Of a DNA stretch of 29,875 bases, positions 1,793 to 23,999 are shown piece by piece. Under the pieces are notes generated by a model. It was not told the origin of the DNA. It ran no database searches and saw only the letters and a list, made by a program, of their open reading frames with translations. The number at the start of each line of letters is the position of its first letter. Positions within the stretch are counted from its first letter, which is position 1. Both the position numbers and the translations under genes were made by a program. The stretch is taken from the NCBI GenBank assembly GCA_044343545.1, contig JAWBZR010000006.1:1-29875 (forward strand), read 5' to 3'. The DNA comes from Candidatus Aenigmatarchaeota archaeon. GTDB taxonomy: Archaea > Aenigmatarchaeota > Aenigmatarchaeia > CG10238-14.

Positions 1793-1828
1793 GAGTAAAA
1801 GGCGCCAGCTGGCAAGTGAGAGTTTGAG

Positions 1829-2110
1829 GTGAATTTTAAATTGAAGCAAGAGACGATAAAAAAAATCGGGAAAATACTTCTTGTGCTTAAAGAAAGCGAA
1901 AATTGGATTCATTTGAGAGAAATAAGCAGAAGAAGCGGTATACATCATCAAACAGTCTCTGAAATTTTAGATAAATACTTAAATCAATTTATTTTGACTC
2001 AAAATTTCAATGAATACGGTTTAAGGCTTAAATTAGTTAAATTAAAGGATAAAAAAGTTGATTTAAAAAGTGTTTTATTGTATCTTAAGTATAGGAATAA
2101 AGTTGAATGA
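1829..2110 (+). CDS. Small winged-helix/HTH DNA-binding protein
   Basis: WIHLREISRRSGIHHQTVSEILDKYL HTH signature. Confidence 0.75.
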   Translation: MNFKLKQETIKKIGKILLVLKESENWIHLREISRRSGIHHQTVSEILDKYLNQFILTQNFNEYGLRLKLVKLKDKKVDLKSVLLYLKYRNKVE

Positions 2111-2115
2111 CCCCA

Positions 2116-2198
2116 TGTAATATGTATTACAATACTTTTTATTTTTTCTTTTTAGCTTGTGAAAAGTTTTAAATTTTCTTTTTGTAATAGGTATTACA
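2116..2198. promoter_or_regulatory. Two palindromic operator-like sites TGTAATA-NG-TATTACA (2116-2131, 2183-2198) flanking a BRE/TATA-like box (2161-2174)
   Basis: Both 16-mers have perfect 7-bp arms; the second overlaps the ATG at 2198. Confidence 0.65.
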
Positions 2199-2413
2199 TG
2201 ACGGTCTTGTTGATTTACGATATACCCACAACAAAGAAAAATTTGCTTGTAAGAGTTTGGAGAGAGTTGAAAAAGATAGGGGCTCAGAAGCTCGTGAATT
2301 CTGTTTGGAGTGTTGAAAATGAAATCCAAACAGAAATAATCACAGAAATTAAAAATATGATATTGAAAGCTGGCGGTAACGCAAAAATTGTAAGGGTGGT
2401 TTCTATTGATTAA
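2198..2413 (+). CDS. Small Cas2-like / PaaX-central / ChrB-N-type ferredoxin-fold protein
   Basis: MTVLLIYDIP...RVWRELKKIGAQKLVNSVW matches the YDI...L-x-x-x-G-x-x-x-x-x-SVW pattern; ATG 2198 is preferred over 2159. Confidence 0.65.
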   Translation: MTVLLIYDIPTTKKNLLVRVWRELKKIGAQKLVNSVWSVENEIQTEIITEIKNMILKAGGNAKIVRVVSID

Positions 2414-3371
2414 AGTGTTAGGTATAGAATCAACGGCTCATACTTTTGGTGTAGGAGTAATTGAAGAAAAAAATATATTGTTCGATGAAAAATCTTTTTA
2501 CAAACCTCCTCCTGGGCAAGGGATGTTACCAAGAAAGGTGTTTGAATACCATTCTGACTATGCTCCAAAAATCGTTTTGGACGCATTAAAGTTAGGGGAT
2601 ATCGATGTCGTTGCTTTTTCTCAAGGTCCAGGTTTACCTAATTGTCTCGCACTCGGTGCAACCATCGCAAGATACCTGTCACTTAAATTATCAAAACCGT
2701 TAATAGGCGTAAATCATCCTATAGCTCATGTAGAAATCGGCAAAATGTTAACAGGATGTAAAGATCCTGTCGTCATATATTGCTCTGGTGGAAATACCCA
2801 AATAATTGCATTAACTGGAGGTAGATATAGAATATTTGGTGAAACTCTTGACATACCTATAGGCAATGCTTTTGATGTGCTCGCTAGGATTATGGGTTTA
2901 GAAATGCCTGGTGGTCCAAAAATAGAAGAATTAGCAAAAAATGGTAAGTGGATTGACCTACCTTATGTTGTTAAGGGTATGGATTTTTCCTTTTCTGGCA
3001 TACTTACAGCTTGTGAAAGATTGTATAAAAAGGGGTATAAAAAAGAAGATATAGCCTTTTCATTTCAAGAAACATGTTTTTCTATGTTAATCGAAGCAGC
3101 CGAGAGAGCTTTAGCGCATACAGAAAAAGATGAATTGCTAGTTACAGGTGGCGTTGCCGCAAATAATAGGTTTAAAGAAATGCTTGAAACTATGTGTAAA
3201 GAAAGAGGTGTAAAATTTTATGCTGTTCCTCTTAAGTATGCAGGTGATAATGGAGTGATGATTGCATGGACAGGGTTTCTTATGTTCTCTTGCGGAATAA
3301 CAACAAAAATAAGAGAGAGTGGTATAAAGAAAGATTGGAGAATAGATGAAGTGGACGTGAAGTGGACGTGA
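2406..3371 (+). CDS. kae1: KEOPS tRNA N6-threonylcarbamoyltransferase Kae1
   Basis: LGIESTAHTFGVG, FSQGPG, VNHPIAHVEIG, SGGNTQ, GETLDIPIGNAFD, GGVAAN, DNGVMIAW. Confidence 0.96.
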   Translation: MIKVLGIESTAHTFGVGVIEEKNILFDEKSFYKPPPGQGMLPRKVFEYHSDYAPKIVLDALKLGDIDVVAFSQGPGLPNCLALGATIARYLSLKLSKPLIGVNHPIAHVEIGKMLTGCKDPVVIYCSGGNTQIIALTGGRYRIFGETLDIPIGNAFDVLARIMGLEMPGGPKIEELAKNGKWIDLPYVVKGMDFSFSGILTACERLYKKGYKKEDIAFSFQETCFSMLIEAAERALAHTEKDELLVTGGVAANNRFKEMLETMCKERGVKFYAVPLKYAGDNGVMIAWTGFLMFSCGITTKIRESGIKKDWRIDEVDVKWT

Positions 3372-3378
3372 AGTCGAA
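3346..3378 (+). repeat. 11-bp phased repeat array (A/G)TGAAGTGGAC x3
   Basis: ATGAAGTGGAC GTGAAGTGGAC GTGAAGTCGAA starting at 3346, 3357 and 3368, spanning the kae1 stop codon. Confidence 0.65.
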
Positions 3379-3416
3379 AAAGAAAGATTAAATAATCCTT
3401 GAGAGATATTATTCTT

Positions 3417-4100
3417 ATGAGTCTTAAAAATGCTCTAAAGAAATTGTTAGGTATAAACAGATCATCAACAATTATCAACAGCAATCAACAGCAATTAACA
3501 GCAATTAACAGAAATCAACAGCAATTAACAGAAACTGAAAGCTATAATATAAGGGATTTGCAATATGCTAGAAGGATGGGTCAAATTGAACAAATGGCAG
3601 CGGATTTGGCTCTAATAAAAGAGAAAATAACTTCTCTTGACATAAAATTCGATTTAAGGGTTCCTGATGTCGTTTTAACTGAAAAAAAATTCGATAAAGA
3701 GATTGGATCCAACGAAGATTTTTATAAAGAGTTGGAAGCTATAAGGCAAAACATAGAAATTCTCAAAGAAATTATCAGCAATCAACAGCAATTAACAGCA
3801 ATTAACAGAAATCAACAGCAATTAACAGCAATTAACAGAAATCAACAGATGAAAATATTAGATGATATTAAGAGATCAGCAGAATTTTTGGAGGATAATT
3901 TGAGACAAAAAGAGGTTTTAAAACATTTGGACGATAAAAAATTGAGTAGCGAAGAAATAGGCAACTTGTTAGGAATTTCGAGGAGCAGGGCAAATCAAAT
4001 ATTGTTGGAGTTGGAAAAAAAAGGTCTTGTATATAGGATAAAATATGGCAAAAAAATATTATGGGGAAAAGTTGAAACTAGAACAGCTCGCTCTCGCTGA
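3417..4100 (+). CDS. Coiled-coil protein with N-terminal amphipathic helix, internal NQQQLTAINR repeats and C-terminal winged HTH
   Basis: MSLKNALKKLLG N-terminus; heptad-rich middle; LSSEEIGNLLGISRSRANQILLELEKKGLVYR wHTH; ATG 3417 is preferred over TTG 3399. Confidence 0.8.
   Translation: MSLKNALKKLLGINRSSTIINSNQQQLTAINRNQQQLTETESYNIRDLQYARRMGQIEQMAADLALIKEKITSLDIKFDLRVPDVVLTEKKFDKEIGSNEDFYKELEAIRQNIEILKEIISNQQQLTAINRNQQQLTAINRNQQMKILDDIKRSAEFLEDNLRQKEVLKHLDDKKLSSEEIGNLLGISRSRANQILLELEKKGLVYRIKYGKKILWGKVETRTARSR
3461..3530 (+). repeat. Intragenic tandem array 1: seven 10-bp units, consensus G(C/A)AAT(T/C)AACA
   Basis: ATCATCAACA ATTATCAACA GCAATCAACA GCAATTAACA GCAATTAACA GAAATCAACA GCAATTAACA. 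Confidence 0.95.
3778..3847 (+). repeat. Intragenic tandem array 2: seven 10-bp units, same consensus
   Basis: GCAATCAACA GCAATTAACA GCAATTAACA GAAATCAACA GCAATTAACA GCAATTAACA GAAATCAACA. Confidence 0.95.
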
Positions 4101-4341
4101 CGACTACAAAATCTCCTATGGATTTCACTGCACTAAAAGGTATTAAAAGCCTTCCCTTTTCGTCTTCTTTTAAGTTTAAATCCTTTAAAGCCTTTGTTGC
4201 CCCAGCAACTACTATATTGAGCAACTCGCCGCTTTCGGTTACAAAATCGATATTGCTGACAACACCGAATCTTCTCCCCGTTTCCTCGCTTATTATTGTT
4301 TTTCCAATAACAGATTTTGCCTTAATTCTTGTTTCTGGCAT
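4078..4341 (-). CDS. PRC-barrel domain protein (CdpB-like)
   Basis: IGKTIISEETGRRFGVVSNIDF...SGEL...IPFSAVKSIGDFVVV PRC-barrel pattern; ATG at 4341 follows a GGTGA SD. Confidence 0.85.
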   Translation of the reverse strand: MPETRIKAKSVIGKTIISEETGRRFGVVSNIDFVTESGELLNIVVAGATKALKDLNLKEDEKGRLLIPFSAVKSIGDFVVVSESELF

Positions 4342-4403
4342 TTTTTCATTCACCTTTTAAACTATTTGCATTGATAATAATATATTTTTTACTATTCTTA
4401 AAG

Positions 4404-5468
4404 TCAAGCTTCGGCAAGCATCGTTTTTGCCTTTCCAGATAATGAATAAACAAATTTGTTACCTACCTTCACTCTCTTTATCAAATCCTCTTCCATTAAC
4501 CTCTTTAATATGTTGTTCACAGACCTGATAGCGTGATCTTTCGTCTTATAATCCTTCATATCTATATTTTTCACAATTTCAGTTGGTGAAAGATCTGGCA
4601 TTTTATTTAACAAGTCCAGTATTTCTTTTTGTTTAGGTGTTAACGTGAACTTCATTTGCACTGCTTTAGGTAAGGATTTCATACTAAATATTTCTTCCAC
4701 TAATGAACCGTTTATAGAAGTCAAGTTTCTCGATGCGGCCTCTCTAACTAACTGATCGCAAATCTTGATTATTTCTCTTGGAAATCCTCCCGTGATTTGA
4801 TATATTTTTTTTACGGCATCCTGAGTGAATGGTTTTATGCCCGTGCCACCTGCTCTATCTATTCTCTTTTGTATTAAAGATTCTGTTTCCATTTCAGAAA
4901 GAGACTCTAAATATATTCTGGTATTTATTCTCATAAGCAACGTCGGGAGATCGGCTTCAAGTTTTTTTTCGAAGGTATTTAAGCCTGCAAAAATCATGAC
5001 AAGATTTGGAGTAAGATCGTTTAGAGTTCTCAACCATTCAAGAACTTCTTGGGAACATTCATGCGCCTCATCTATTAAAAAAATTGTTTTTTTCTTTGCT
5101 TTTTTGTTGAGATATTTAGGCAAGTTTTCGATGTTTATTTCTTTATATAAAATCTTGTCTATCAAACTATAACCTAGATGGTGCTTAAAAAGTTTTATTA
5201 AATCTTCTTTGGTCGTCGGAGGTTTTGGAACATAGTAACAAAAGAATTTGTCATAAGCTTTTAACTGAGCCTTGAGCCACAATAGTATAGTCGTCTTGCC
5301 CGCGCCTGTTGGGCCTATAACCATAGCTGCTTTATGCTCATTAAAAACATGATTTAGCAATTGCTCGGTTTGTTGAGAGTAGCCGACCATAAGGTCTGGT
5401 GAAACTGTTAATGTAAATGGATTTCTTGACCATCCAAATACTTTGAAATATTCATATTTTCCTTCCAT
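4404..5468 (-). CDS. ExeA-like AAA+ ATPase with C-terminal winged HTH
   Basis: FGWSRNPF N-terminal motif, Walker A GPTGAGKT, Walker B FLIDEAH, MIFAG, TGGFPREI, C-terminal LTPKQKEIL...SPTEI...NILKRLMEEDLI; ATG 5468 (MEGKY) is preferred over the longer ORF start at 5594. Confidence 0.85.
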   Translation of the reverse strand: MEGKYEYFKVFGWSRNPFTLTVSPDLMVGYSQQTEQLLNHVFNEHKAAMVIGPTGAGKTTILLWLKAQLKAYDKFFCYYVPKPPTTKEDLIKLFKHHLGYSLIDKILYKEINIENLPKYLNKKAKKKTIFLIDEAHECSQEVLEWLRTLNDLTPNLVMIFAGLNTFEKKLEADLPTLLMRINTRIYLESLSEMETESLIQKRIDRAGGTGIKPFTQDAVKKIYQITGGFPREIIKICDQLVREAASRNLTSINGSLVEEIFSMKSLPKAVQMKFTLTPKQKEILDLLNKMPDLSPTEIVKNIDMKDYKTKDHAIRSVNNILKRLMEEDLIKRVKVGNKFVYSLSGKAKTMLAEA

Positions 5469-5560
5469 AAACTTCACGTGGCTTTCACAAACAGTTAATT
5501 TAAGTGATTTTATCAATTTAAATTTTGTGTGAAGTTTACGTGAAATCGACGTGAAGTTAT
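5451..5560. repeat. Oppositely oriented 11-bp phased GTGAA box arrays around an AT-rich spacer
   Basis: TTCA(C/T) at 5451, 5473 and 5484 (minus-strand boxes); GTGAAGTTTAC GTGAAATCGAC GTGAAGTTAT at 5529, 5540 and 5551. Confidence 0.7.
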
Positions 5561-5599
5561 TACTATAAATATTAAGTTTAGAAAAAACAAACATTATTC

Positions 5600-6127
5600 A
5601 TGCCAAGATTATTCGTTTGCGTTTGGATACCTGAAAACATGAAAGCTAACATAATAAAATTTCAAGAAAAAATTTCTCGCTTACCTTTAAAAGCCAAATT
5701 TGTTGAGAAAGAAAATCTTCACCTCACAATAACATTTTTAGGAGAAAGAGAGGATATAGAAGATATAAAATCATCTTTGGAAGGTTTGAAAGGTTTCGGT
5801 ACTTTCAAAGTTTCTTTATCGGGACTAAAAATAATACCGTCTGAAAATTACATAAGAGTTATAGGCGTGAATGTGAAAGATGATGGAAGCTTTTCTAGAT
5901 TAATAAAGATGACAATAAAATTGATAGGTGGCGAGTATTATGAAACAGGCAAGTTAACTCTATGCAGAGTGCATTCAATAAATGAAAAACAAAGTGTGTT
6001 GAATTTTTTAAAAGAAAACAAGGATATAGATTTTGGAAGCTTTGAAGTGGAAAAGATATCTTTAGTCAAAAGCACTTTAACGCCAAAAGGGCCTATATAC
6101 AACACGATATATGAAGTGAATCTGTGA
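5600..6127 (+). CDS. thpR: 2H-phosphoesterase, RNA 2',3'-cyclic phosphodiesterase (2'-5' RNA ligase) family
   Basis: MPRLFV, ENLHLTITFLG, KSTLTPKGPIY; the second HxT motif reads KLT. Confidence 0.85.
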   Translation: MPRLFVCVWIPENMKANIIKFQEKISRLPLKAKFVEKENLHLTITFLGEREDIEDIKSSLEGLKGFGTFKVSLSGLKIIPSENYIRVIGVNVKDDGSFSRLIKMTIKLIGGEYYETGKLTLCRVHSINEKQSVLNFLKENKDIDFGSFEVEKISLVKSTLTPKGPIYNTIYEVNL

Positions 6128-6471
6128 TGAAAGAAAAACATTTCATCATATTGTGTTTTGCTATCTCACTCTTAGGTTTGATGGTCATCTACATTGCAGA
6201 CGAAATGACTCAACCTGAGTGGGTTTCCATATCACAAATAAATGAAGGTAAAAATTACGTTGCATTCAACGCGACGATTATTGGCATAAAAAGAACTGAT
6301 GTAGGCACATTCATAAAGGTTAAGGATAACACTGGAGTCATAGACGTGGTTGTTTTCGACGAAAAAATTAACACAACTGGCTTGAATGCGGGAATGTCTG
6401 TCAAAATAATTGGAAAAGTTCAAAGATATAAAGGAAAGTTGGAAATAATACCTTCAAGCATCTTGAGATAA
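6127..6471 (+). CDS. Membrane-anchored OB-fold protein
   Basis: N-terminal TM helix, then FIKVKDNTGVIDVVVF...GMSVKIIGKVQRYKGKLEI OB pattern. Confidence 0.75.
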   Translation: MKEKHFIILCFAISLLGLMVIYIADEMTQPEWVSISQINEGKNYVAFNATIIGIKRTDVGTFIKVKDNTGVIDVVVFDEKINTTGLNAGMSVKIIGKVQRYKGKLEIIPSSILR

Positions 6472-7617
6472 ATCCTCTGCTGTAAGTATTTTTGTTTTGC
6501 TTGTTTCAAATTTTTTTTCTGCTGAAGATGCTATTAAATATTCCACTCCCAACTTATCTGCTACTTCTGCCATTTCTTTATCAATCGTTCCGTCTATTAA
6601 CACTATTTTTGCATTCTTCAAAGTCTCGTTATTTTCTGAAAACTGTGTTAAAGGTAATTTTGCTGTCATCTTTAGCTTTTCATTAAAAACATACGCCGCT
6701 CTCGTTCCAACCATCTTATCGAGTATGTCTAATATTTTTTTCTTCTTTTCCGAATCCAAATCATCTCTTGACTCTTGAACGATCAATTTTTTTTGCCTCT
6801 TTTTTCTTATCGCTTCTACAAAAGGTAATTTTTGCCTCAAGCAAATGAATATCTCCTTATCAGCTAGCTCTTCCACTTCTTTCCCATCAGGTGCTCTTGC
6901 TACGTAATCTATCTTAACAAACCTTGAAAGTTTTTTGAGAACTAAATTGCCTCCTCTGTCCCCATCTAAAAACACCGTTACTTTCTTGTTTTTCACCAAC
7001 TCAGGTAGATATTTTGATATAGCAGTTCCGCCTATGGAAGCAACGTTCTTTATGCCTGCTTTTAACAGATTGATTACATCCGCCCTGCCTTCGACTAGAA
7101 TTATTTCTTCCGCGTTCATAGCATCGGGACCGCAATCTATGTCTTTGTATTTAACTATTTCTGATGACCTTACAGAATCTCTTATAGCTTCTGCCAATTC
7201 ATCCGCATCTGGCTGTTCTTTCATGAGTTTTTGAAGTATTTCCTTTGCCCTGTCGATAATATACTCTCTCTTGATCTCCCTCATATCTTTTACATCTTGA
7301 AGTGTTACCTTTGCCTCACAAGGTCCTATCCTTTCTATAGTTTCTATTGCCGCTGCTATTAATGCCGTTTCCGTGCTATCCAAGCTCGACGGAATATAAA
7401 TTTTCCCTTCTGTTTTTCCGTCAATTTCCTTTAGCTCGACGTCTATCCTCCCTATTCTCCCGGTTTTTTGTAATTCCCTCAAATCCAAATCACTACCAAG
7501 CAAACCTTCAGTTTGCCCAAAAATAGCACCTATGACGTCAGGTTTTTCCACCAAACCTTCGGCAACGAAGCTTGCCTCTATCAAATATTTTGTGGTTGTT
7601 TGAGCTATTTTCCCCAT
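6454..7617 (-). CDS. dnaG: Archaeal DnaG (TOPRIM, exosome-associated)
   Basis: VEKPDVIGAIFGQTEGLLG..LDLRELQKTGRIGRI, VEGRADV, FLDGDRGG, APDGKEVEEL; ATG 7617 follows a GGGGTGA SD. Confidence 0.95.
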   Translation of the reverse strand: MGKIAQTTTKYLIEASFVAEGLVEKPDVIGAIFGQTEGLLGSDLDLRELQKTGRIGRIDVELKEIDGKTEGKIYIPSSLDSTETALIAAAIETIERIGPCEAKVTLQDVKDMREIKREYIIDRAKEILQKLMKEQPDADELAEAIRDSVRSSEIVKYKDIDCGPDAMNAEEIILVEGRADVINLLKAGIKNVASIGGTAISKYLPELVKNKKVTVFLDGDRGGNLVLKKLSRFVKIDYVARAPDGKEVEELADKEIFICLRQKLPFVEAIRKKRQKKLIVQESRDDLDSEKKKKILDILDKMVGTRAAYVFNEKLKMTAKLPLTQFSENNETLKNAKIVLIDGTIDKEMAEVADKLGVEYLIASSAEKKFETSKTKILTAEDLSQDA

Positions 7618-7960
7618 AGTAAATATCACCCCTTTTGTTCAACTCTTCTATTTTCACCACCCTAAAAATCTTTTTAAATTCCCTTCTTAATGCATGGTTG
7701 TACTTTATTCTTTCCACCTCAAAAAATCTATATATCTTTTTCTTTATCAGTTCTCCTTCACGATCAAAGTCTGTTAAAACCACGTATTCTTTATCATACT
7801 TCAACTTTGGAATAAATTTTTCCAAGGATGATCCTGAAATGGCTTGTATATCATGTAGCTCCAAAGCTTGCAGAGCTTCTTTATCTTTCTTACCTTCGAC
7901 TATTATTGAAAAATTCTGTAATTTTGATAGTAATTTTCGGTAATCGTGATGTTCTAACAT
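7538..7960 (-). CDS. Small stand-alone TOPRIM domain protein
   Basis: IIVEGKKDKEAL and VLTDFDREGE motifs. Confidence 0.85.
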   Translation of the reverse strand: MLEHHDYRKLLSKLQNFSIIVEGKKDKEALQALELHDIQAISGSSLEKFIPKLKYDKEYVVLTDFDREGELIKKKIYRFFEVERIKYNHALRREFKKIFRVVKIEELNKRGDIYYGENSSNNHKIFDRGKLRCRRFGGKT

Positions 7961-8146
7961 CACTAACTCTATTTTTTAGAAGAACTATTTAAATTTTTCT
8001 CTTGCTTAAACAATTTTTAAATCACAAAAAATAACCTTAGAATCATTAGAAATCTTTAATTTCTTGGTGCTTTAAAATAAAATATGAATCAAAATATCGA
8101 ATTGCTTACATAAAAAATTAAGAAAATTTCAACAATTAACTAGTTT

Positions 8147-8641
8147 TCACAAAAGTTCACCCAAACATCGAAGATATGTATCAATTTCTCTGTTCTTCCA
8201 AGCATTATTTATTACTCCTAATTTATCTTCAATTACAGCTGCCTGGTCAAGGAGACCACGATGAATATGTGCTGCAGCTACAGGAGCTTTTTCTAATAAA
8301 GGACCTATTTTATTCAAAACATCCATTAGTTGATTTAAATAATAAAAAGCGAGGGGTATATCTAGAAGTGACAAGGCTTCTCTTAAATTTTTCCTAAAAC
8401 CACCCTCAACATAAGCTCCAATATATTTAATCACTACTTCTAAATCTTCAATACTGAGACTATATCCACCACTAGACAATAAATCACATAACCTAACTGC
8501 GGGCGTAAGATCGTCAGCTGTTGATGTTCTCATATGAGTTACTAATTGCCCTATAGTCGGATATAGTCGATTGTTTGTAACTCCGTTTCTTTGTCTGGCT
8601 GATAAAATTCTACTTACCCATGGATCGTAAGTTGATGACAT
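8147..8641 (-). CDS. Hypothetical helical protein
   Basis: 164-aa ORF with ATG start, flanked by AT-rich intergenic regions; no motif recognised. Confidence 0.55.
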   Translation of the reverse strand: MSSTYDPWVSRILSARQRNGVTNNRLYPTIGQLVTHMRTSTADDLTPAVRLCDLLSSGGYSLSIEDLEVVIKYIGAYVEGGFRKNLREALSLLDIPLAFYYLNQLMDVLNKIGPLLEKAPVAAAHIHRGLLDQAAVIEDKLGVINNAWKNREIDTYLRCLGELL

Positions 8642-8782
8642 AAAAAAGTTTTTGGATTTACTTATATTTAAATTTTACTACTTTTTAGTAAATATATATA
8701 TTTCAACTCAAGCAATTTTAAACACAAAAACAAAAATCTTAATAGTGTCAAATTTAAATTTCTATCAATTAGGGGTTTAAAT

Positions 8783-9391
8783 ATGGAAATCTTACTGAAA
8801 TTGGCTGAGAAGATAGAAAATAAAGAGTTAAGAAAAAAAGTAATCGAATACGTGAACGATAAAAAGCTTAAAAACCCTCACTTTTCAAAATACAAAAGAG
8901 AAGATTTGGAAAAAGCTGGAAGCTATTTTTCTGTTGGAAATTCACATTTTGGTCCTATCGAAAGAGACGTCGTGCACCATACAGCCGTGTTAACGCACAT
9001 GGTTATACAAATAGCCAAGATTGTCGAATCTGGTTATGGAATAAAAATCGATATGGATAGTTTAATAGCAGCTTCCATATGTCATGACATAATGAAATCC
9101 GTGGAATATAACAGAGATGAAAACAACGAATTAGAGCCAACGGGTGTAAGCTTGGATCATACGATGTTGGGTGTCGCTGAGCTTTATGCAAGAGAATTTC
9201 CTGAAGACGTGATACATATAGTTGCATCCCATGCTGGCGAAGCTGGAACTACGAAACCCAAATCTTTCGAAGCTTTAATATTTCATGAATTAGACTCGCT
9301 AGCTTCCGTGATAGAATATTATGCTATCGTTTATTCTAAATTGAAAGAAAAAATGAAAGCTTTCGAAAAGGAGAAAGAAGATAATGAATGA
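8783..9391 (+). CDS. HD-domain phosphohydrolase
   Basis: VHHT, ICHDIMK, LDHT, VASHAG, FHELD metal-binding residues. Confidence 0.85.
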   Translation: MEILLKLAEKIENKELRKKVIEYVNDKKLKNPHFSKYKREDLEKAGSYFSVGNSHFGPIERDVVHHTAVLTHMVIQIAKIVESGYGIKIDMDSLIAASICHDIMKSVEYNRDENNELEPTGVSLDHTMLGVAELYAREFPEDVIHIVASHAGEAGTTKPKSFEALIFHELDSLASVIEYYAIVYSKLKEKMKAFEKEKEDNE

Positions 9392-10511
9392 TTTTAAAAA
9401 TTTGGATGATGTGATTTCATTTTTAAAAAAGAGTTTAGAAAATGTGAAAAGTGGCGATAATGTCTGTATTATTCATCATGACGATGCTGACGGATGCACA
9501 TCAGCAGCTATGCTATCCATACTTTTATTCAAAAACATGAGCCAATTTCCTGAAACAATACCTATGAAGGCTCCTGCCAATGTTTCCAAAAATTTCATAA
9601 ACAAATTAAAAAGCATGAACCCGGACCATATATTTACATTAGACGTAAGCATAGATCCAAAAAAATTAGCACTATTTAATGGCTTTATCTTGGATCATCA
9701 CATACAAAATTTTCAAGACAAAGGAAATATTAATTATATTAATCCTAGATGCTTCGAGAAAATTGATGAAAAAGTTCCACCCACGTCTTTTATAATTTAC
9801 AAAGTTTTCAAGTTATTTTATCCGAACGAAAAGATTTCTTGGATAGCTGGTATAGGAATAACGGAAGATCACAGAGTTGAATTATGTAAAGAAGTTTTTT
9901 ATCAAGTAATGAAAGATTATCCAAATTTTTTCAGCGCGAATGAAATAACACAAGAAAGCATTGAAAGGTCTATTTTTGGAAAGTTGTGGGATGTCGTGAG
10001 ATCTGGTAGAATGATAAAGAAAAATGAAGGTGCGAGAATTGCCGTTCAAGCGTTGATAGAATGTAAAGATGATCCGATTAGCTTTTCAAAAGGCTTGACT
10101 CCAAATTCTTACACTTTAATAAAATTTTATGAAATTGTAAACAAAACTGTTAAGAGGATATTGGACGATGCTCCGAAAAAAGCAAGATTTTATTATGACA
10201 AGAAGATTTTGATTTACGAGCTGCCGTCCAGTAAGATAGAATCTTTGACTTCTTTCGTGTCTGATAAATTGAGAATAATGTATCCCGAGTGGGTTGTTTG
10301 CGTTATAAGTAATGGCTCTGATGACAAAAATTTGAAACTGAGTATAAGGGTTGAACATACCAGAAGGGACGTAAATCTTGCAGAAATAGTAGACAAACTA
10401 AAAAAAGACTTTCATGAATTAAAAGGAGGGGGGCATAAATCCGCTGTTGGAGTAAATATAAAAAAAGAATATCTTGAAAGTTTTTTAAAGAAATTTATCG
10501 ACTCTTTTTAG
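9384..10511 (+). CDS. DHH/DHHA1 phosphoesterase (RecJ/GAN-like)
   Basis: HHDDADG, TLD, LDHH, SIR, GGGHKSAVG. Confidence 0.88.
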   Translation: MNDFKNLDDVISFLKKSLENVKSGDNVCIIHHDDADGCTSAAMLSILLFKNMSQFPETIPMKAPANVSKNFINKLKSMNPDHIFTLDVSIDPKKLALFNGFILDHHIQNFQDKGNINYINPRCFEKIDEKVPPTSFIIYKVFKLFYPNEKISWIAGIGITEDHRVELCKEVFYQVMKDYPNFFSANEITQESIERSIFGKLWDVVRSGRMIKKNEGARIAVQALIECKDDPISFSKGLTPNSYTLIKFYEIVNKTVKRILDDAPKKARFYYDKKILIYELPSSKIESLTSFVSDKLRIMYPEWVVCVISNGSDDKNLKLSIRVEHTRRDVNLAEIVDKLKKDFHELKGGGHKSAVGVNIKKEYLESFLKKFIDSF

Positions 10512-17301: not shown

Positions 17302-17604
17302 ATGAGAAAAGGATATAGGTATGAGTATTTAGCAAAAAGAAAATTGATAGAAAAATATGGAAAACAAAACGTGATAAAATTAGCTATAGGTCAATCTGCC
17401 GACTTTATTATTTTAGCACCAAAACAAAATAAAATAGAAAAAATAGTTGAAGTTAAGGGGACTTGCAAAGAAAAGTTTTACTTGAAACCAAGAGAAAAAA
17501 CTCAATTTCGAAATATACATGAGCTTGCGAGGGAGCATGATATACCGGTTGAGGTTTGGATAAAAACGCGTGGCAAGGAGTTTGATGTAAGGGTGATGGA
17601 ATGA
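17302..17604 (+). CDS. Hjc-like PD-(D/E)XK nuclease (Holliday junction resolvase-like)
   Basis: RKGYRYE, ADFIIL, IVEVK; about 100 aa. Confidence 0.65.
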   Translation: MRKGYRYEYLAKRKLIEKYGKQNVIKLAIGQSADFIILAPKQNKIEKIVEVKGTCKEKFYLKPREKTQFRNIHELAREHDIPVEVWIKTRGKEFDVRVME

Positions 17605-18281
17605 AAATTTTAGTTGTTGGTGATAATCATAATGATTTGGAAAACATGATTAGTTTCTTAGAAAAATTGAAAGAATTTGATTTCGATGTGATAGCATACG
17701 TTGGTGATTTTAGCGATGTTGGGGTTACGAAAGGTTTTCAGCAGGAGGATGTTGCAAAAATTTTGATAGAAGAGTTGAAAATGCTTAAAAAACCGATTGT
17801 TGCCGTGCCGGGAAATAATGACAATAAAAATGTTATCGAGTTGCTGGAAAAGGAAGGTATAAGTGTGCATGGCAAAGGAAAAATTATTAATGGTGTTGGT
17901 TTTTACGGTTTTGGTGGGGCGAAAACACCTTTCAACACTTTTTATGAGCCTTCTGAAGAAGAAATAAAAAAGGGTTTGGAAAAAAGTTATGTTCAAGTAA
18001 TGAATGTTGAAAAGAAAGTTCAAATAACACACGTACCGCCTATAAATACAAAATTAGATCTAACTCTTACGGGACTTCATGTTGGTTCTGTTGTTGTAAG
18101 AAACTTTATAGAAAAATATTCTCCTACTGTTGCTCTTTGTGGTCACATACATGAAAGTAGGGGTGTTGATTATATAAACAAAACACTATTGTTAAATCCT
18201 GGTAGGTTTGCTGAGGGATATTATGGTATAGTCACTATTAATGAAAAGACAGATGGTTTTGTTTTTAACGTTATAGAATAA
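17601..18281 (+). CDS. Calcineurin-like metallophosphoesterase
   Basis: GDNH, VGD, PGNND, THVPP, GHIHE, NPG. Confidence 0.9.
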   Translation: MKILVVGDNHNDLENMISFLEKLKEFDFDVIAYVGDFSDVGVTKGFQQEDVAKILIEELKMLKKPIVAVPGNNDNKNVIELLEKEGISVHGKGKIINGVGFYGFGGAKTPFNTFYEPSEEEIKKGLEKSYVQVMNVEKKVQITHVPPINTKLDLTLTGLHVGSVVVRNFIEKYSPTVALCGHIHESRGVDYINKTLLLNPGRFAEGYYGIVTINEKTDGFVFNVIE

Positions 18282-18470
18282 CACACCCCTTTGTTGCAAG
18301 TGGAAATATTGAGTTTTATTATAAAAATTAATTCAGATGCAATATATTTATACATATAAATATAACACTGTTATATTTTATATTGTGACATTATGATATT
18401 TTCCACAAGAAACAATGGGGTGGGTTATATATACGTTCCAATAGAAAAAGGTTTATTTCTCAAGGAAACA
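18282..18470. other. Replication origin oriC: inverted ORBs flanking an AT-rich unwinding element
   Basis: Minus-strand ORB TTTCCACTTGCAACAAAGGGGTG (about 18284-18306), plus-strand ORB TTCCACAAGAAACAATGGGGTGGG (18401-18424), mini-ORB-like GTTCCAATAGAAA (18435) and TTTCTCAAGGAAAC (18456); directly upstream of cdc6. Confidence 0.88.
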
Positions 18471-18486
18471 TTTAATATAGATTGTT

Positions 18487-19701
18487 ATGGATACCCAAAA
18501 GACTATAAGAAACATATTCCAGGAATTTATATCAAAACCACCCCAGATTTTTAAGAACAGAGATGCCCTCTCATCAGAGTTTATACCAGAAACGATATTT
18601 CATAGAAACAAGGAAATTAACACGATAGCATCGATTTTAGCGCCTTCTTTGAAAGGAGCCAGGCCTTCAAACATTTTTATTTACGGTTTGACAGGTACGG
18701 GAAAAACTTTAGTGTCTAAGTATATCACCGAAGAATTGGAAAAAATATCCTCTCAAGGAAACTATCCGGTTAAAACATTATACATTAATTGCAAGATGAA
18801 AAAAATTTCTGACACGGAGTACAGGCTTGTAACAGAGCTTACTAGAATGTTGGGCTACAATCTTCCGACAACGGGCATGCCAACGGATTACATTTATCAA
18901 ACTTTTTTCAATGCGTTGGATTCGGAAAGAAGAATTATAATTTTGGTTTTAGACGAAATAGACGCGTTAGTTGAAAAAGTGGGAGACGAATTTCTTTATA
19001 ACTTGACGAGAATAAATCAAGAATTGAAACAAGCAAAGGTTTCTATAATAGGCATAACCAACGATCTTCATTTTATTGAAATTTTAGATCCGAGAGTAAA
19101 AAGCTCTTTGAGAGAAGAAGAAGTTTTATTCATTCCTTATAACGCAACACAATTGTATGACATATTGAAGCAAAGAGCGGACATAGCCTTTTCAGAAGGC
19201 GTTTTGTCAGAGGAAGTTATACCAAAGTGTGCTGCCTTGGCAGCGCAAGAGCATGGAGACGCAAGAAGAGCGTTAGAATTGTTAAGGGTTGCAGGCGAAA
19301 TAGCGGAAAGGTTGGGTGACAGCAAGGTTACGGAAAAACACGTGGATATGGCGCAAGAAAAAATAGATTATGACAGAATAGTAGAATCAACGAAAGTTTT
19401 GCCAAAACAAACTAAAGTCGTCCTTTGGGCGATATTGGAGTTGGCCGAAAAGAAAAGAGATGACATACAAACGGGAGATGTTTACGACATTTATCAGAAA
19501 AAATGCAAGGAAATCGGCTTGTATCCTTTGACTCAAAGAAGAATTTCCGATCTCATTTCAGAGCTTGATATGGCCGGAATAATAAACGCAAAAGTCACTT
19601 CCCTTGGTAGATATGGTAGAACAAGAGTAATATCTTTCAATCTTTCAGAGCCAATAAAACAAAAAATTAAATCCATATTGACTGAAAGCCTAGTGGTTTG
19701 A
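18487..19701 (+). CDS. cdc6: Orc1/Cdc6 replication initiator
   Basis: YGLTGTGKT, LVLDEID, LDPRVKSSL, HGDARRALELLRVAGE, C-terminal wHTH with GRYGRTR. Confidence 0.97.
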   Translation: MDTQKTIRNIFQEFISKPPQIFKNRDALSSEFIPETIFHRNKEINTIASILAPSLKGARPSNIFIYGLTGTGKTLVSKYITEELEKISSQGNYPVKTLYINCKMKKISDTEYRLVTELTRMLGYNLPTTGMPTDYIYQTFFNALDSERRIIILVLDEIDALVEKVGDEFLYNLTRINQELKQAKVSIIGITNDLHFIEILDPRVKSSLREEEVLFIPYNATQLYDILKQRADIAFSEGVLSEEVIPKCAALAAQEHGDARRALELLRVAGEIAERLGDSKVTEKHVDMAQEKIDYDRIVESTKVLPKQTKVVLWAILELAEKKRDDIQTGDVYDIYQKKCKEIGLYPLTQRRISDLISELDMAGIINAKVTSLGRYGRTRVISFNLSEPIKQKIKSILTESLVV

Positions 19702-20645
19702 TGGAAGAGCAAGAAATAATTAAAAAATTCTTGGATTTAGGCGTGCAACTCACGAACGAAGCATTTAGTATGGTAAAAAAAGATCCGGATTTTTTTCTCG
19801 CAGAAATCAAGAAACTCAAACCACGGCCTTTTTTTATAACAAAAGACATTTTGAATAAAATAATAGAAAAAAAAGAAAGGACGGATTTTAGAATTATAAA
19901 AACTATTCAGCTAGGAAAGAAAGCGTTAAGAGTGGAAGATTACGCAAACTTTTATTTGAAAAAATATGAGAAGATAAAGGAAATTTTTGTGCAAGCAGGA
20001 TATAGCGGAATGTCTATCAATAAAATCGGGGAAACCACGAAGGAATTTTGGACCATAGGTGTTGTAAAGGAGAAAAAGAAATCTTCTTTGGTTCTCGAAG
20101 ATCCTACGGGGGAAATAGACATATTTTTCGATGGTATAATGAGACAAAAAATTGATGAATTTTGTAGGGACGATGTTGTTGCGGTGTTTTGCGAAAAAAT
20201 TAAAGACAGGTTTGTTGTCAAAAAGATATCACATCCAGACATACCGTTGAGCAGAGAAGTGAAAAAGACAAAAGACGAGTTGTTCGTAAAGATTGAGCAA
20301 GGCGATGAATGTGTTTTATCACCGAATAAATATATCAGCCCAGCTTTTTTACAACTCGACGACATCGTTTTTTTGTTACTTCCGAGAAAATTCTTCGAAG
20401 CGTTAAAATTTAATATAACCTCTGAGGATATTGCAGGTTTGTTGAAGAAAAGATTTTTGCTACCATCAACTATTGACATCGCAATTGGCGAGATTGAAAG
20501 TTTGGTTTTGACGGAATTGCCCGACATAATAGTGACGGACTTGGAACCATCCCTTTGCAAAAACTATAAAGGGACTACAATTATTTCTGTTTTCGACAAG
20601 AGCTATGAAGTAAATCTTCACACGAGAGAGGTAAAAGAATTATAG
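19701..20645 (+). CDS. Inactivated, internally deleted DNA polymerase D small subunit (DP1) / B-subunit-like protein
   Basis: VEDYANFYLKKYEKI, OB fold LEDPTG...DDVVAV, HPDIP, LLKKRFLLP, LVLTELPDII, NYKG; no SDxH, GNHD or GHxH catalytic motifs. Confidence 0.78.
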   Translation: MEEQEIIKKFLDLGVQLTNEAFSMVKKDPDFFLAEIKKLKPRPFFITKDILNKIIEKKERTDFRIIKTIQLGKKALRVEDYANFYLKKYEKIKEIFVQAGYSGMSINKIGETTKEFWTIGVVKEKKKSSLVLEDPTGEIDIFFDGIMRQKIDEFCRDDVVAVFCEKIKDRFVVKKISHPDIPLSREVKKTKDELFVKIEQGDECVLSPNKYISPAFLQLDDIVFLLLPRKFFEALKFNITSEDIAGLLKKRFLLPSTIDIAIGEIESLVLTELPDIIVTDLEPSLCKNYKGTTIISVFDKSYEVNLHTREVKEL

Positions 20646-20697: not shown

Positions 20698-23409
20698 ATG
20701 CCCATAGAAATGCAAGTGCTGGATGTTGATTATGTAATGTTGAATGATCACCCGACGATAAGAATTTTCGGAAAAACAAGTGATAAAAAATCGATAACGG
20801 CTTTCGTCGAAGATTTTTATCCCTACTTTTATGTGCACGTTGAAGATGGAAAAGACGAGCAATTAATAAAGTATCTCGAGGAAAAACACAAGCAAATGCT
20901 AGTAAAGTTGGAAAAAGTTGAAAAGTTTTTACCGATAGGATATTCTAAGGAGCCAACGAAGCTTTGGAAAATAACAATAAAGAATCCTTCCAACGTGCCT
21001 TTGTTGAGGGATGAATTAAAGGCGAAGAATTTTGTTAAAGACGTTTTCGAAGCAGATATACTGTTTAGAAACAGATTCATGGCAGATAAGGATATTGTGG
21101 GTATGGGTTGGTATGAGGTTGACGGTATCGGTGTCAAGACAAGTATTGTGAAGACTGAAAAGGCGTTAACGCTTAAGAAAATAAAACCTATAGAAAAATA
21201 TGAGAATGCGCATTTGAAATATTTGAGCATCGATATAGAAACCTATTCTGAAGAATTCGGAATGCCAGATTCTTCAAAAGATCCTATAATAATAATAAGT
21301 TTGTTTTTTTACCCTTCTTTTAAAGGTAATAATACTTGCGTTTTGGTGGCGAAAAAAACCAAGAACGGTTTTGGAGACGTGAAGATGTTTAGCACTGAAA
21401 AGGACATGTTAGAGGAGTTCTTGAAAATTGTCGAAGATTTCGATCCGGATATAATATTGGGTTATAACAACACAAATTTCGATCTTCCTTACATAGAAGC
21501 TAGATTAGCGGCAAATAAATTACCGAAAACGTTGGGGAGGTGCAATCAAAAAGGAATTAATTGCACAAAATTGTCTTCAGGGTGCAAAATTACCATTCCT
21601 GGAAGAATAGTGGTGGATGTTTATTCCCTGATAAAGGAGGCGGTGACAAAGTTTGGCATGTATAAAGGTTTGAAAAGATTTAGTTTGGGAGATGTTTCAC
21701 AACTCATTTTGGGTGAAGGAAAGGTGGATGTGGCGCATAGCGAGATAAGTAAATTTTGGAATGATGATGGAGAAAATTTCACGAAGCTTATTAATTACAG
21801 CAGAAAAGACGCAGAGTTGCCTTTTAGAATGCTAATGGAAATGAACATGCTTGATAAATTTTTTGAAATAAGCAAAGTGAGCGGTTTAGTTTTGCAAGAT
21901 GTTTTGGATGGTGGCGAGGCCATGAGAATAGAGCAGCTCTTGTTGAGGGAGTTCAACAGGAGAGGTTTTATAGTACCTAACAAACCTGACAATCAAGAGC
22001 TGAATAAAAGAAACGAAGAAAGGATAAGTTCTGGTCTAAAAGGAGGTTTTGTGCTTTCGCCAGAAGTTGGCTTACATGATAAGGCGGTAGTTTATTTAGA
22101 TTTCAAATCGATGTATCCAAGCATAATGATAGCATTCAATATTTGTCCCACAACTCTTTTAAAGGAAGAAAAAGATGTTGAAAAAATCGTTTCGCCTTTT
22201 GGCACAGCTTTTGTGCATCCGAAAATAAGAAAAGGCGTGGTGCCTGAAATAGTTGAATATTTGATAAAAGCAAGAGACAGAGTAAAAAAAGAAATGAAAA
22301 ACGCAAAAACAGAGCAAGAAAAGAAATATCTCTATGCAAAACAGTATGCCTTTAAAACGGTTGCTAATGCTTTTTACGGTTACACTGGTTATTTGAGAGC
22401 AAGATTGTATGTGTTAGAGATAGCAAATACTATAACTGCCACTGGGAGGGAATTAATAAAGAGGGCAAAACACATAGTCGAGACAAATACACCATACAAG
22501 GTTGTTTATGCTGATACAGACTCTGTGATGGTCAAACTTGATACGGATGATGTTTCGGAGGCTTTCAAAATCGGCAATGAAATAGCAAAAATGATAAACG
22601 AAAGTATTGGTTACGGATTGGAAATGAAGGTTGAAAGCGTGTTTAAAACCATGCTCATATTGAGCAAAAAGAGATATGCAGGTTGGAGTTTTGAAGAAAA
22701 CAACGGTGGTTATACCGACAGCATAGTTACTAAAGGCATAGAAACCGTGAGAAGAGATTGGTGCAATCTCGTTTCCGAGACGCTTCAAGAAACGCTTGAA
22801 ATAATTCTAAAGGAGAAGGATGTTAGGAAGGCTTTGAATATAGTAAAGGAAAAAATAAGCGATATAAAGAAAGGTAAAATGGATATAAACAAGCTTGTGA
22901 TAACAAAAAGCATATCAAAGTCTTTGAAGACATATAAAGGCATACAGCCGCACGTAGAGCTTTTGAAAAAAATGAAGAGGAGAGATCCATCTTCAGCTCC
23001 TGGAGTTGGTGATAGAATAGGCTATGTCATAGTTAAAGGTACTGGTCAAGTTTCCAAAAGAGCGGAAGACCCGGATTATGTGATAAAACACAACATACCT
23101 ATAGATTCTGATTACTATATAGAGAATCAACTTTTACCTCCTTTGGAAAGAGTGTTCGAAGCTTTGTCAATAGGCAAGGCAGAAATTCTTGGTGTAGGCA
23201 AGCAATCAGGTTTGGTAGACATACTAGTCAACGGTAAGCCAGAAAGCGAATATCAAGAATATCTTGAAGAGATAGACGGTTTTGTTTGTGTTTCTTGCGG
23301 TAATGTTTTGCAAAGAGTTCCGATGAGTGGAAGGTGCGATGCATGTCGAGGAGAGCTCGTTTTTTACAAGGGAGACAAGAGATCAAGAATATTCATACCA
23401 GCTTCATAA
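20698..23409 (+). CDS. polB: Family B DNA polymerase, Pol-delta-like, with intact 3'-5' exonuclease and C-terminal DP2-type Zn finger
   Basis: ExoI DIE, ExoII YNNTNFD, ExoIII YSRKD; DFKSMYPS, KTVANAFYG, YADTDS, KKRY, GIETVRRDWC; C-terminal CVSC-x12-CDAC. Confidence 0.96.
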   Translation: MPIEMQVLDVDYVMLNDHPTIRIFGKTSDKKSITAFVEDFYPYFYVHVEDGKDEQLIKYLEEKHKQMLVKLEKVEKFLPIGYSKEPTKLWKITIKNPSNVPLLRDELKAKNFVKDVFEADILFRNRFMADKDIVGMGWYEVDGIGVKTSIVKTEKALTLKKIKPIEKYENAHLKYLSIDIETYSEEFGMPDSSKDPIIIISLFFYPSFKGNNTCVLVAKKTKNGFGDVKMFSTEKDMLEEFLKIVEDFDPDIILGYNNTNFDLPYIEARLAANKLPKTLGRCNQKGINCTKLSSGCKITIPGRIVVDVYSLIKEAVTKFGMYKGLKRFSLGDVSQLILGEGKVDVAHSEISKFWNDDGENFTKLINYSRKDAELPFRMLMEMNMLDKFFEISKVSGLVLQDVLDGGEAMRIEQLLLREFNRRGFIVPNKPDNQELNKRNEERISSGLKGGFVLSPEVGLHDKAVVYLDFKSMYPSIMIAFNICPTTLLKEEKDVEKIVSPFGTAFVHPKIRKGVVPEIVEYLIKARDRVKKEMKNAKTEQEKKYLYAKQYAFKTVANAFYGYTGYLRARLYVLEIANTITATGRELIKRAKHIVETNTPYKVVYADTDSVMVKLDTDDVSEAFKIGNEIAKMINESIGYGLEMKVESVFKTMLILSKKRYAGWSFEENNGGYTDSIVTKGIETVRRDWCNLVSETLQETLEIILKEKDVRKALNIVKEKISDIKKGKMDINKLVITKSISKSLKTYKGIQPHVELLKKMKRRDPSSAPGVGDRIGYVIVKGTGQVSKRAEDPDYVIKHNIPIDSDYYIENQLLPPLERVFEALSIGKAEILGVGKQSGLVDILVNGKPESEYQEYLEEIDGFVCVSCGNVLQRVPMSGRCDACRGELVFYKGDKRSRIFIPAS

Positions 23410-23435
23410 AAGCTTCACGAGACATTCACGCGCTC
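23392..23435 (-). repeat. 11-bp phased (G/A)TGAA box array x4
   Basis: TTCA(T/C) at 23392, 23403, 23414 and 23425, across the convergent polB / LAGLIDADG gene ends. Confidence 0.5.
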
Positions 23436-23999
23436 AAATTCAACGGGGTTCAGTATTTTTTTCACCAACGTTCTTTTTTTCTCATTCTCGAATCCTATCT
23501 TTTCTGCATATATTTGCAAGTTATGCTTTCCGTTAATTTCGAGCACATAACCTTTGCCCATCTTGTAGCAAAGTGCTTTTATTCCTTCCATTTCTAATAA
23601 AACTTTCAAAGACATCAATCCTTCCTTATTTATCGAAGAAAGCCTCAAACACCTTTCCTTCCTTCCCTTTCTTTTTCTCGCTCTTATTAAGCCGGAGAAA
23701 TCAAACACAGCTTTCAGGAACTCCCTTCTGAACTCTTCTGATGAAAATGCACGTGAAGGAACTTTCCATTCACGTCTACCCAAGCTTGCTCCCAGATCTT
23801 CTATCTCTAAAATTATTAACAAACTTTCGTAATGTTTTTTGCCACATCTTTTTCGTGTGTAAATTTTTTTGATCAGGGAGCGGAGTTTTTCTTTCGCTAT
23901 CTTTTTCAACTCTTCATCGGAAATTTCCACCCATATCCTTCTCCCACTCTTGACCCCCTTCATGGCAAGAATGCCGTAAACATAGCCATTTATTTCCAT
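23415..23999 (-). CDS. Stand-alone LAGLIDADG-fold protein, probably catalytically inactive
   Basis: YVYGILAMKG and EFLKAVFDFSG resemble the two LAGLIDADG helices; LSSINKEGL..LKVLL..GI and YAEKIGF..EKK are typical of DOD/WhiA-like domains. Confidence 0.7.
   Translation of the reverse strand: MEINGYVYGILAMKGVKSGRRIWVEISDEELKKIAKEKLRSLIKKIYTRKRCGKKHYESLLIILEIEDLGASLGRREWKVPSRAFSSEEFRREFLKAVFDFSGLIRARKRKGRKERCLRLSSINKEGLMSLKVLLEMEGIKALCYKMGKGYVLEINGKHNLQIYAEKIGFENEKKRTLVKKILNPVEFERVNVS

Follow-up and report, generated by a model that had tools for sequence, protein, structure and literature searches.

A DP2-type zinc finger at the C-terminus of a family B DNA polymerase, encoded next to a degenerate DP1 homologue, in a Candidatus Aenigmatarchaeota archaeon

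We analysed a stretch of 29,875 nucleotides from a Candidatus Aenigmatarchaeota archaeon (contig JAWBZR010000006.1 of assembly GCA_044343545.1, positions 1 to 29,875; the whole stretch is hereafter called the window) with respect to one open reading frame (ORF), 20698..23409 on the plus strand, which ends in a stop codon at 23407-23409 and encodes a 903-aa family B DNA polymerase (PolB). This PolB ends in a Cys4 zinc finger of the type known as Zn-III in DP2, the large subunit of PolD, and the gene directly upstream encodes a degenerate homologue of DP1, the small subunit. The explanation that we hold with high confidence is that a captured DP2 Zn-III finger docks an inactive DP1-type B-subunit on PolB. 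In the mechanism we propose, the C-terminus of PolB in an Aenigmarchaeota-type DPANN archaeon would have captured the Zn-III ribbon of DP2, and the borrowed finger and a short terminal strand would together hold the upstream DP1-like protein as a non-catalytic B-subunit; proofreading would be supplied by the exonuclease domain of PolB itself, and a motif resembling the PCNA-interacting peptide (PIP) would be the original C-terminal PCNA-binding peptide of the polymerase, now internal. A PolB with a DP2-type finger and a DP1 partner is already published for this lineage, and the window is a further example, not a discovery; what is added here is small: that the gene pair is conserved, that the PIP-like motif has been kept and that the DP1 phosphoesterase is extremely eroded in this genus.

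The domains of the polymerase body are matched strongly and over their full length by Pfam (DNA_pol_B, 7e-119, aa 399-822; DNA_pol_B_exo1, 1.8e-39, aa 115-316), and a phmmer search of the PDB placed Thermococcales PolB (5e-115) and human Pol delta (7e-112) about equally. Alignments to the solved archaeal PolBs stop at query aa 829-842, only 2-19 residues short of the C-termini in those full-length chains that were checked (5mdn_A, for example, was aligned to 781 of its 783 residues), and the window PolB extends ~60-65 aa beyond these C-termini. Because the Pfam match ends at aa 822 and the archaeal PolB alignments end at aa 829-842, the final ~60 aa of the protein are extra. They consist, in order, of the PIP-like motif (Q836-L843), a linker, the Cys4 finger (C864, C867, C880, C883) and the short terminal strand (coordinates in Table 1). 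A second PolB of the same genome (G000 contig C1:77194-81387; L002:1432-3774, minus strand) has 780 aa and no zinc finger, and its C-terminus, ...QDSLHFWFKK, is a canonical terminal PIP box. A first-pass annotation made from the DNA letters had called the tail of the window PolB an added domain, and both the earlier ends of the solved archaeal PolBs and the canonical end of this second PolB bear it out.

The cysteines of the finger form a single Cys4 module of the arrangement CxxC-x12-CxxC, and its loop QRVP is the counterpart of the RRxP loop of DP2. In an alignment of 21 orthologous tails (A1; the window and 20 loci) no variation is seen at the four Cys and at F888 (A1 position 38), and conservation at P24, G27 and G34 (alignment positions) is at least 90%, giving the consensus DGFxCxxCNxxYRRxPLxGKCxxCxGExxF; a few rows start with M where an initial TTG or CTG-type codon was read as a start, which affects only the first columns. 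Because the Cys and Phe are invariant and the P and G near-invariant in the 21 tails, the finger is more than a chance pattern. Its four cysteines would be expected to bind a metal. When the A1 profile was searched against the PDB, DP2 Zn-III came first (6knb_B, residues 1128-1156, expectation value (E) 1.5e-9; 6hms_B, residues 1120-1147, and 6t8h_B, E 2.6e-8), and the next best match was a CTCF finger at E 5.2e-4; no eukaryotic polymerase C-terminal domain (CTD) was among the 37 PDB sequences listed for it at E <= 10. The same profile gave 215 matches at E <= 0.001 in 1.84 billion representative proteins. The best 150 of these were classed via their flanking sequence, with the finger excluded from the seeds, as DP2 (88), PolB (29; 117 together with DP2) or unclassified (33, mainly fragments of <150 aa and a few long Cys-rich or repeat proteins), and Pfam on 38 hand-picked members of the best 150 returned 18 DP2, 14 PolB and 6 other or none. 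Moreover, the window tail and DP2 both read C-x5-R-x-P-x-x-G-x-C and align without a gap over 29-30 residues. The first-pass annotation had compared the tail with the DP2 finger: its strings and coordinates hold, and only the spacing that it gave, C-x4-R-x-P, is one residue short. Its assignment to the DP2 type agrees with the profile separation and with the library matches; the outcome that would have spoken against it, a set of generic Zn ribbons among which DP2 ranks no better than the rest, is not what was found.

The DP2-type finger is present once in the genome, in this PolB, and a homologue search with the tail returned 2 proteins, the tail itself and one 77% identical, named 'Candidatus Aenigmarchaeota archaeon', in agreement with the lineage of the published polymerase. 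In the AlphaFold2 (AF2) model of the tail, the predicted local confidence (pLDDT) is >90 for aa ~855-903. A variant finger in which the second Cys pair reads C-x-C-GG (e.g. ...GICDCGGE...) was seen at L042:5605-5739 and in the metagenomic fragments P0021, P0025, P0032, P0034 and P0078.

The upstream gene probably starts with the ATG at 19701, in overlap with the TGA that ends orc1/cdc6 (TGATG), and its product is, by its sequence, a DP1 homologue whose phosphoesterase is eroded and inactive. The NCBIfam models of the PolD small subunit (PRK04036.1-3) match it at E 4.7e-20 over aa 1-195, which covers the N-terminal domain and the OB fold, and the profile of its family (alignment A2) retrieved six DP1 chains from the PDB at E 8.8e-24 to 1.7e-20, in an alignment that takes in the OB fold and the two ends of the phosphoesterase, between which a large internal part is deleted. 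A single-sequence search of the PDB returned nothing at E <= 10, and only the family profile and NCBIfam revealed this homology; Pfam DNA_pol_E_B has no match anywhere in the genome, this protein included. The AF2 model (pLDDT 92.4, pTM 0.80) is matched by Foldseek to DP1 9f2a_A at 1.7e-14 (TM 0.62, query-length normalised), to Pol epsilon B at 8e-10 and to Pol delta p50 at 8.5e-10, and B-subunits as a whole, those of Pol epsilon, delta, alpha and zeta, span 8e-10 to 1e-4 (8e-10 to 1e-5 for Pol epsilon B, Pol delta p50 and Pol alpha B). A calcineurin-like phosphoesterase has five metal-binding nuclease motifs, D-x-H, GD, GNH[DE], H and GH-x-H. With the A2 columns set against the DP1 alignment, none of the five is recognisable in the window protein: 'SDIHVG' has become KIEQG, the stretches with GD and GNHD are lost, 'AHG' has become LPR and 'GHVH' has become T--DLE. 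Longer DP1-like relatives of ~390 aa (L041-L043) retain SDFHMD, LGDISS and GHFH. A joint reduction of the PolB tail and the DP1 phosphoesterase was considered and is not supported, because the relatives with a ~390-aa DP1-like protein and partial motifs have equally long tails.

We predicted the complex of the DP1-like protein and the 89-aa PolB tail, both given as alignments. The median ipSAE was 0.70 (runs 0.77, 0.70 and 0.68) and that of the best control 0.00; this mark is reached by 116 of 157 solved complexes and by 2 of 215 mismatched pairs. The runs have at least 88% of their contacts in common, with a partner pLDDT of at least 67. On the tail, the modelled contacts are Y855, I859, F862, the loop R873-G878, E886-F889 and R897-P901, and on the DP1-like protein they are residues 74-90, the OB residues 122-125 and 134-138, 157 and 260-261. 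The predicted interface thus uses the RVPMSG loop of the tail, the counterpart of the DP2 RRxP loop, and reaches E134-D135-x-T137-G138 in the OB fold, a motif with invariant E, D and G and a nearly invariant T in the family; the lowest expected error is found where tail aa 897-901 (RIFIP) touch DP1-like residues 76-79. The predicted contacts are like those of PolD, for which PMC6355029 describes that the Zn-III loop with R1131/R1132 enters the groove between the DP1 OB fold and phosphoesterase, and that a Zn-III peptide of 20 aa has nanomolar affinity for DP1. The complex model supports, and does not show, binding between the tail and the DP1-like protein of the source organism.

The two genes also belong together across the order. 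DP1-like homologues were found in 49 of its 61 genomes, and the 20 loci were taken from such DP1-like-positive genomes in 6 families. In every one of these loci the DP1-like gene and the gene of the finger-bearing polymerase (PolB-Zn) are adjacent on the same strand, with a ~900-aa PolB directly downstream, and the PolB has a Cys4 tail (CxxC...CxxC in 19, CxxC...CxC in one). A gene for orc1/cdc6 directly precedes the pair in the window and in 9 of the 20 loci, as judged by eye from N-terminal similarity. DP2 was not detected: PF03833 and PF24846 have no match in the genome itself (651 kb, 22 contigs, 90.45% complete), and PF03833 has none in the 61 genomes of the order. Among 201 sampled genomes of the phylum PF03833 matched 9, all 8 of family f12 and one on a ~3-kb contig in family f2. 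In the phylum sample, the genome with this last match (G120:C64:998-1843; L053) is alone among those of the window's order in having a DP2 N-terminal domain, and either contamination or a rarely kept PolD could explain it. In family f12 the finger of DP2 is followed by helices and then by a PIP (...KQFSLSSF), ~50 residues more than in the PolB tail. A replacement of the DP2 body by PolB in situ, with the 3' end of DP2 kept, is not supported, since the segments that follow Zn-III in DP2 (helices, PIP) are missing from the PolB tail; DP2 in 3 of 3 f12 relatives has no flanking DP1- or Cdc6-sized ORF in an ORF list inspected by eye, without a Pfam scan.

The PIP-like motif QSGLVDIL begins with codon 836, and the first-pass annotation had both its string and its coordinate exactly right. 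Its Q836 is retained in 20 of the 21 orthologues, where the family pattern is Q-x-x-[LIV]-x-x-h-h. In terms of the canonical PIP box, Q-x-x-[LIM]-x-x-[FYW]-[FYW], the Q and the L are present and the aromatic pair is changed to I-L, so that the motif is PIP-like only. It lies at the point where the alignments to the solved archaeal PolBs end, and these ends of whole-protein alignments are the sole basis for its positional homology to the C-terminal PIP of PolBs; the profile of a longer tail (A3), searched against the PDB, retrieved neither PolB thumbs nor eukaryotic CTDs at E <= 1. The part of the AF2 tail model that holds the PIP-like motif and the linker has pLDDT <50 and is modelled as disordered. 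The genome encodes one PCNA gene (contig C20), and PolB may bind PCNA via this motif.

Several observations weigh against the proposed capture and docking. In the window the RR pair begins with Gln in place of Arg; of the 21 tails, 3 have QR (the window and 2 others), 4 have neither Arg and 14 have RR. Taken alone, the window tail finds DP2 of T. kodakarensis and P. abyssi best in the PDB (residues 1128-1157 and 1120-1148) with a weak E of 0.11-0.23, and its best NCBIfam matches, the models of the PolD large subunit, are weak as well (E 0.0014 and 0.0043). Foldseek of the tail has no match at E <= 0.001; P. abyssi DP2 comes first at E 0.04 (root-mean-square deviation 0.8 Å over 31 columns, 35% identity), closely followed by generic ribbons (Nob1, TFIIH, adenylate kinase lids). 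Hence the preference for DP2 is clear by sequence profiles, and fold alone does not discriminate. The first-pass annotation had proposed to compare the tail with DP2 and with the CTDs of Pol alpha and epsilon by profile and structure searches; DP2 was indeed preferred by profile and ranked first in Foldseek, but the latter match is not significant and no Pol alpha or epsilon CTD was retrieved by sequence. Since solved DP1-DP2 complexes exist, the complex model may pass through likeness to them and not as independent evidence. The helical bundle of the DP2 CTD (alpha1'-alpha3'), which contacts the DP1 phosphoesterase, is absent from the window tail, and PMC12680538 attributes to the Aenigmatarchaeota CTD 'a different predicted structure'. 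The genome is ~90% complete in 22 contigs, so the absence of DP2 is not proven. Finally, the second, canonical PolB with its true C-terminal PIP box could be the main replicase.

This last point leads to the strongest of the alternatives, that the pair of PolB-Zn and DP1-like protein is a relic or an accessory (repair) polymerase and that the canonical PolB on contig C1 replicates the genome. The canonical PIP box of the 780-aa enzyme would fit such a division, as would the lack of aromatic residues in the PIP-like motif of the window PolB, but the two genes are conserved side by side in 6 families and the pair stands directly behind orc1/cdc6 in the window and in 9 of the loci, the fold of the DP1-like protein is confidently predicted, and the exonuclease and polymerase domains are matched strongly and in full. 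We regard an accessory role as unlikely, and PolB-Zn with its docked DP1-type subunit would instead have a replicative role.

A generic or convergent origin of the finger, as a zinc ribbon that does not descend from DP2 and serves in DNA binding or stability and not in docking, is very improbable. Cys4 ribbons are short and recurrent, the Foldseek values for the Nob1 and TFIIH ribbons are similar to that for DP2, and Pfam sees only sub-threshold generic ribbon families in the window tail. A role at the DNA is possible in addition to docking, for Zn-III of PolD is also described near the DNA minor groove (PMC6355029). Against a generic origin, however, the profile sets DP2 more than 4 orders of magnitude ahead of the best generic finger, DP2 and PolB account for most of the best 150 library matches, the finger shares the non-Cys positions F-x-C, RR-x-P-L-x-G-K-C and C-x-G with DP2, and the tail adjoins a DP1 homologue in all 20 loci.

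We give just as little credence to the idea that the finger is a counterpart of the eukaryotic CysA, or of the Fe-S-binding CysB as in Pol delta, and makes mainly PCNA or other replisome contacts and not contacts to a B-subunit. In its favour, phmmer alignments of the whole PolB with Pol delta and Pol zeta of yeast do not stop before the finger but extend across it, up to query aa 883-888, a point that presumably falls in their CysA region. No eukaryotic polymerase CTD appeared in the profile searches with A1 and A3, the tail has one Cys4 module and not two, the complex model docks the finger on the DP1-like protein, and the published clustering places the finger of the related 'B6-aenigma1' group with DP2 Zn-III/CysB (PMC7544198).

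The reading we prefer, a DP2 finger docking a DP1-type subunit, can be set beside published systems. Kazlauskas et al. (2020, NAR 48:10142, PMC7544198) reported that a CTD whose single metal motif is nearest to DP2 Zn-III occurs in some group B6 PolBs, mainly of Aenigmarchaeota ('B6-aenigma1'), that most Aenigmarchaeota are without DP2, and that an inactivated DP1 group co-occurs. The window PolB resembles B6-aenigma1 in its exonuclease and polymerase domains, its DP2 Zn-III-like CTD, the DP2 that was not found and the inactivated DP1, with no essential difference from the description given there; it is a putative member of the B6 clade, for which the nearly equal scores of Pol delta and Thermococcales PolB are indirect evidence. 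In a Nat Ecol Evol paper of 2025 (PMC12680538), the CTD of Aenigmatarchaeota is termed a 'degenerate' DP2CTD and the two-finger 'B6-aenigma2' sequences are moved to Baldrarchaeia. The paper shows by yeast two-hybrid that DP1 binds PolB-DP2CTD in Baldrarchaeia and Aenigmatarchaeota and not canonical PolBs, and it reports AlphaFold3 models of DP1 with PolB-DP2CTD. The Baldrarchaeia PolB3-DP2CTD is alike in that PolB is fused to a DP2-derived CTD in a lineage without DP2 that has kept DP1; its CTD is full-length and eukaryote-like, whereas that of Aenigmatarchaeota, like the window's, is shorter and degenerate (PMC12680538). Our literature search found no further paper on the subject beyond these two, and no mention of the gene order or of the internal PIP-like motif was found in word searches of the main texts of PMC7544198 and PMC12680538.

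Compared with the PolD DP2 CTD itself (P. abyssi 6HMS/6T8H, T. kodakarensis 6KNB), the window finger shares F-x-C-x-x-C-x5-R-x-P-x-x-G-x-C-x-x-C-x-G at ~38% identity over 29 residues; the partner family is DP1 in both, and an equivalent docking loop is predicted in the window model. Unlike DP2, the window tail has no C-terminal PIP, only 14 residues follow the finger and these are modelled as strands, and the order is reversed, with the PIP-like motif preceding the finger in PolB and the PIP following finger and helices in the DP2 of f12. The eukaryotic Pol alpha, delta, epsilon and zeta have in common with the window system a PolB body, a C-terminal metal finger and a second subunit with an OB fold and an inactive phosphoesterase. 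They differ in that their CTDs have CysA and CysB and a helical core, compared with one Cys4 module without such a core in the window, and in that their B-subunits measure about 430-600 aa, compared with 315 aa.

Table 1. Features of the window that belong to the PolB gene, its upstream partner gene and the head of the cluster
Feature	Position	Strand	Basis or remark
Orc1/Cdc6 gene, cluster head	18487..19701	+	Pfam Cdc6_lid 1.7e-29, Cdc6_C 2.8e-27
DP1-like second subunit, 314-315 aa: N-terminal helical domain, OB fold, strongly reduced phosphoesterase remnant	19701..20645	+	NCBIfam, profile, fold
PolB body: N-terminal, 3'-5' exonuclease and polymerase domains (aa 1-822)	20698..23163	+	Pfam and PDB matches
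PIP-like motif QSGLVDIL (aa 836-843), internal, not C-terminal	23203..23226	+	codon 836 starts at 23203
Variable acidic linker, 17 aa (aa 844-860)	23227..23277	+	length and sequence differ among orthologues; pLDDT low to ~aa 850
Cys4 zinc ribbon, DP2 Zn-III type (aa 861-889), GFVCVSCGNVLQRVPMSGRCDACRGELVF	23278..23364	+	invariant Cys, DP2 profile matches
Terminal strand YKGDKRSRIFIPAS and stop codon	23365..23409	+	conserved K-S/R-x-hydrophobic pattern; 14 residues after the finger

Around the cluster, an inverted repeat of 29 nt lies just upstream of orc1/cdc6 (arms 18278-18306 and 18400-18428, 83% complementary, with a 93-nt AT-rich spacer). Its arm, TTTCCACAAGAAAC...GGGGTGGG, resembles archaeal origin recognition boxes (ORBs), and the repeat at 18278-18428 may be a replication origin. 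A metallophosphoesterase of the YfcE/MJ0936 type (17601-18281, plus strand, Pfam Metallophos 5.5e-17) is also located just upstream of orc1/cdc6, and in 8 of the 20 loci (L041, L043, L045, L047, L049-L052; by eye) a similar phosphoesterase of ~235 aa precedes the DP1-like gene by ~1 kb, a conserved neighbourhood. That the YfcE/MJ0936-type protein of the window is the split-off nuclease domain of DP1 was rejected, because it is of the YfcE/MJ0936/aq_1956 type and the DP1-like protein keeps both of its own phosphoesterase ends. On the other side, a free-standing 194-aa LAGLIDADG_3 protein (23415-23999, minus strand, Pfam 1.7e-07) converges on PolB, 6 bp from its stop codon; similar ORFs adjoin PolB in L034, L035 and L039 (by eye), and inteins with LAGLIDADG domains are present in 7 of 14 scanned PolB-Zn homologues elsewhere. 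The LAGLIDADG_3 protein may be a homing-endonuclease relic tied to the polymerase gene. Further genes for nucleic-acid proteins lie at 1142-10511 of the window, namely a Cas4/Dna2-like PD-(D/E)XK nuclease (1142-1792), a small OB-fold protein (6124-6471), a Toprim protein (6454-7629, minus strand) and a DHH/DHHA1 phosphoesterase (9384-10511).

A joint picture, which we offer tentatively and regard as nearly as likely to hold as to fail, is that of a pair fixed across the order and probably co-translated, which in the window's family stands behind orc1/cdc6 and the ORB-like repeat as an origin-proximal operon, and which in the genus has come down to a 315-aa mini-B-subunit, stripped of every nuclease motif and held by a finger of ~30 aa and a strand. 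If true, this would be the smallest natural module of CTD and B-subunit known and a tractable minimal model of how eukaryotic B-subunits are held. The practical value of the window lies in a very compact natural heterodimer for biochemistry or structure. The argument for a chimeric replicase was made in 2020 (PMC7544198) and tested by yeast two-hybrid in 2025 (PMC12680538). In these terms, a PolB with the PolD finger that docks DP1 would correspond, in archaea, to the chimeric build of Pol alpha, delta and epsilon from a PolB body, a DP2-derived CTD and an inactivated DP1-like B-subunit, and it would bear on the origin of the eukaryotic replicases.

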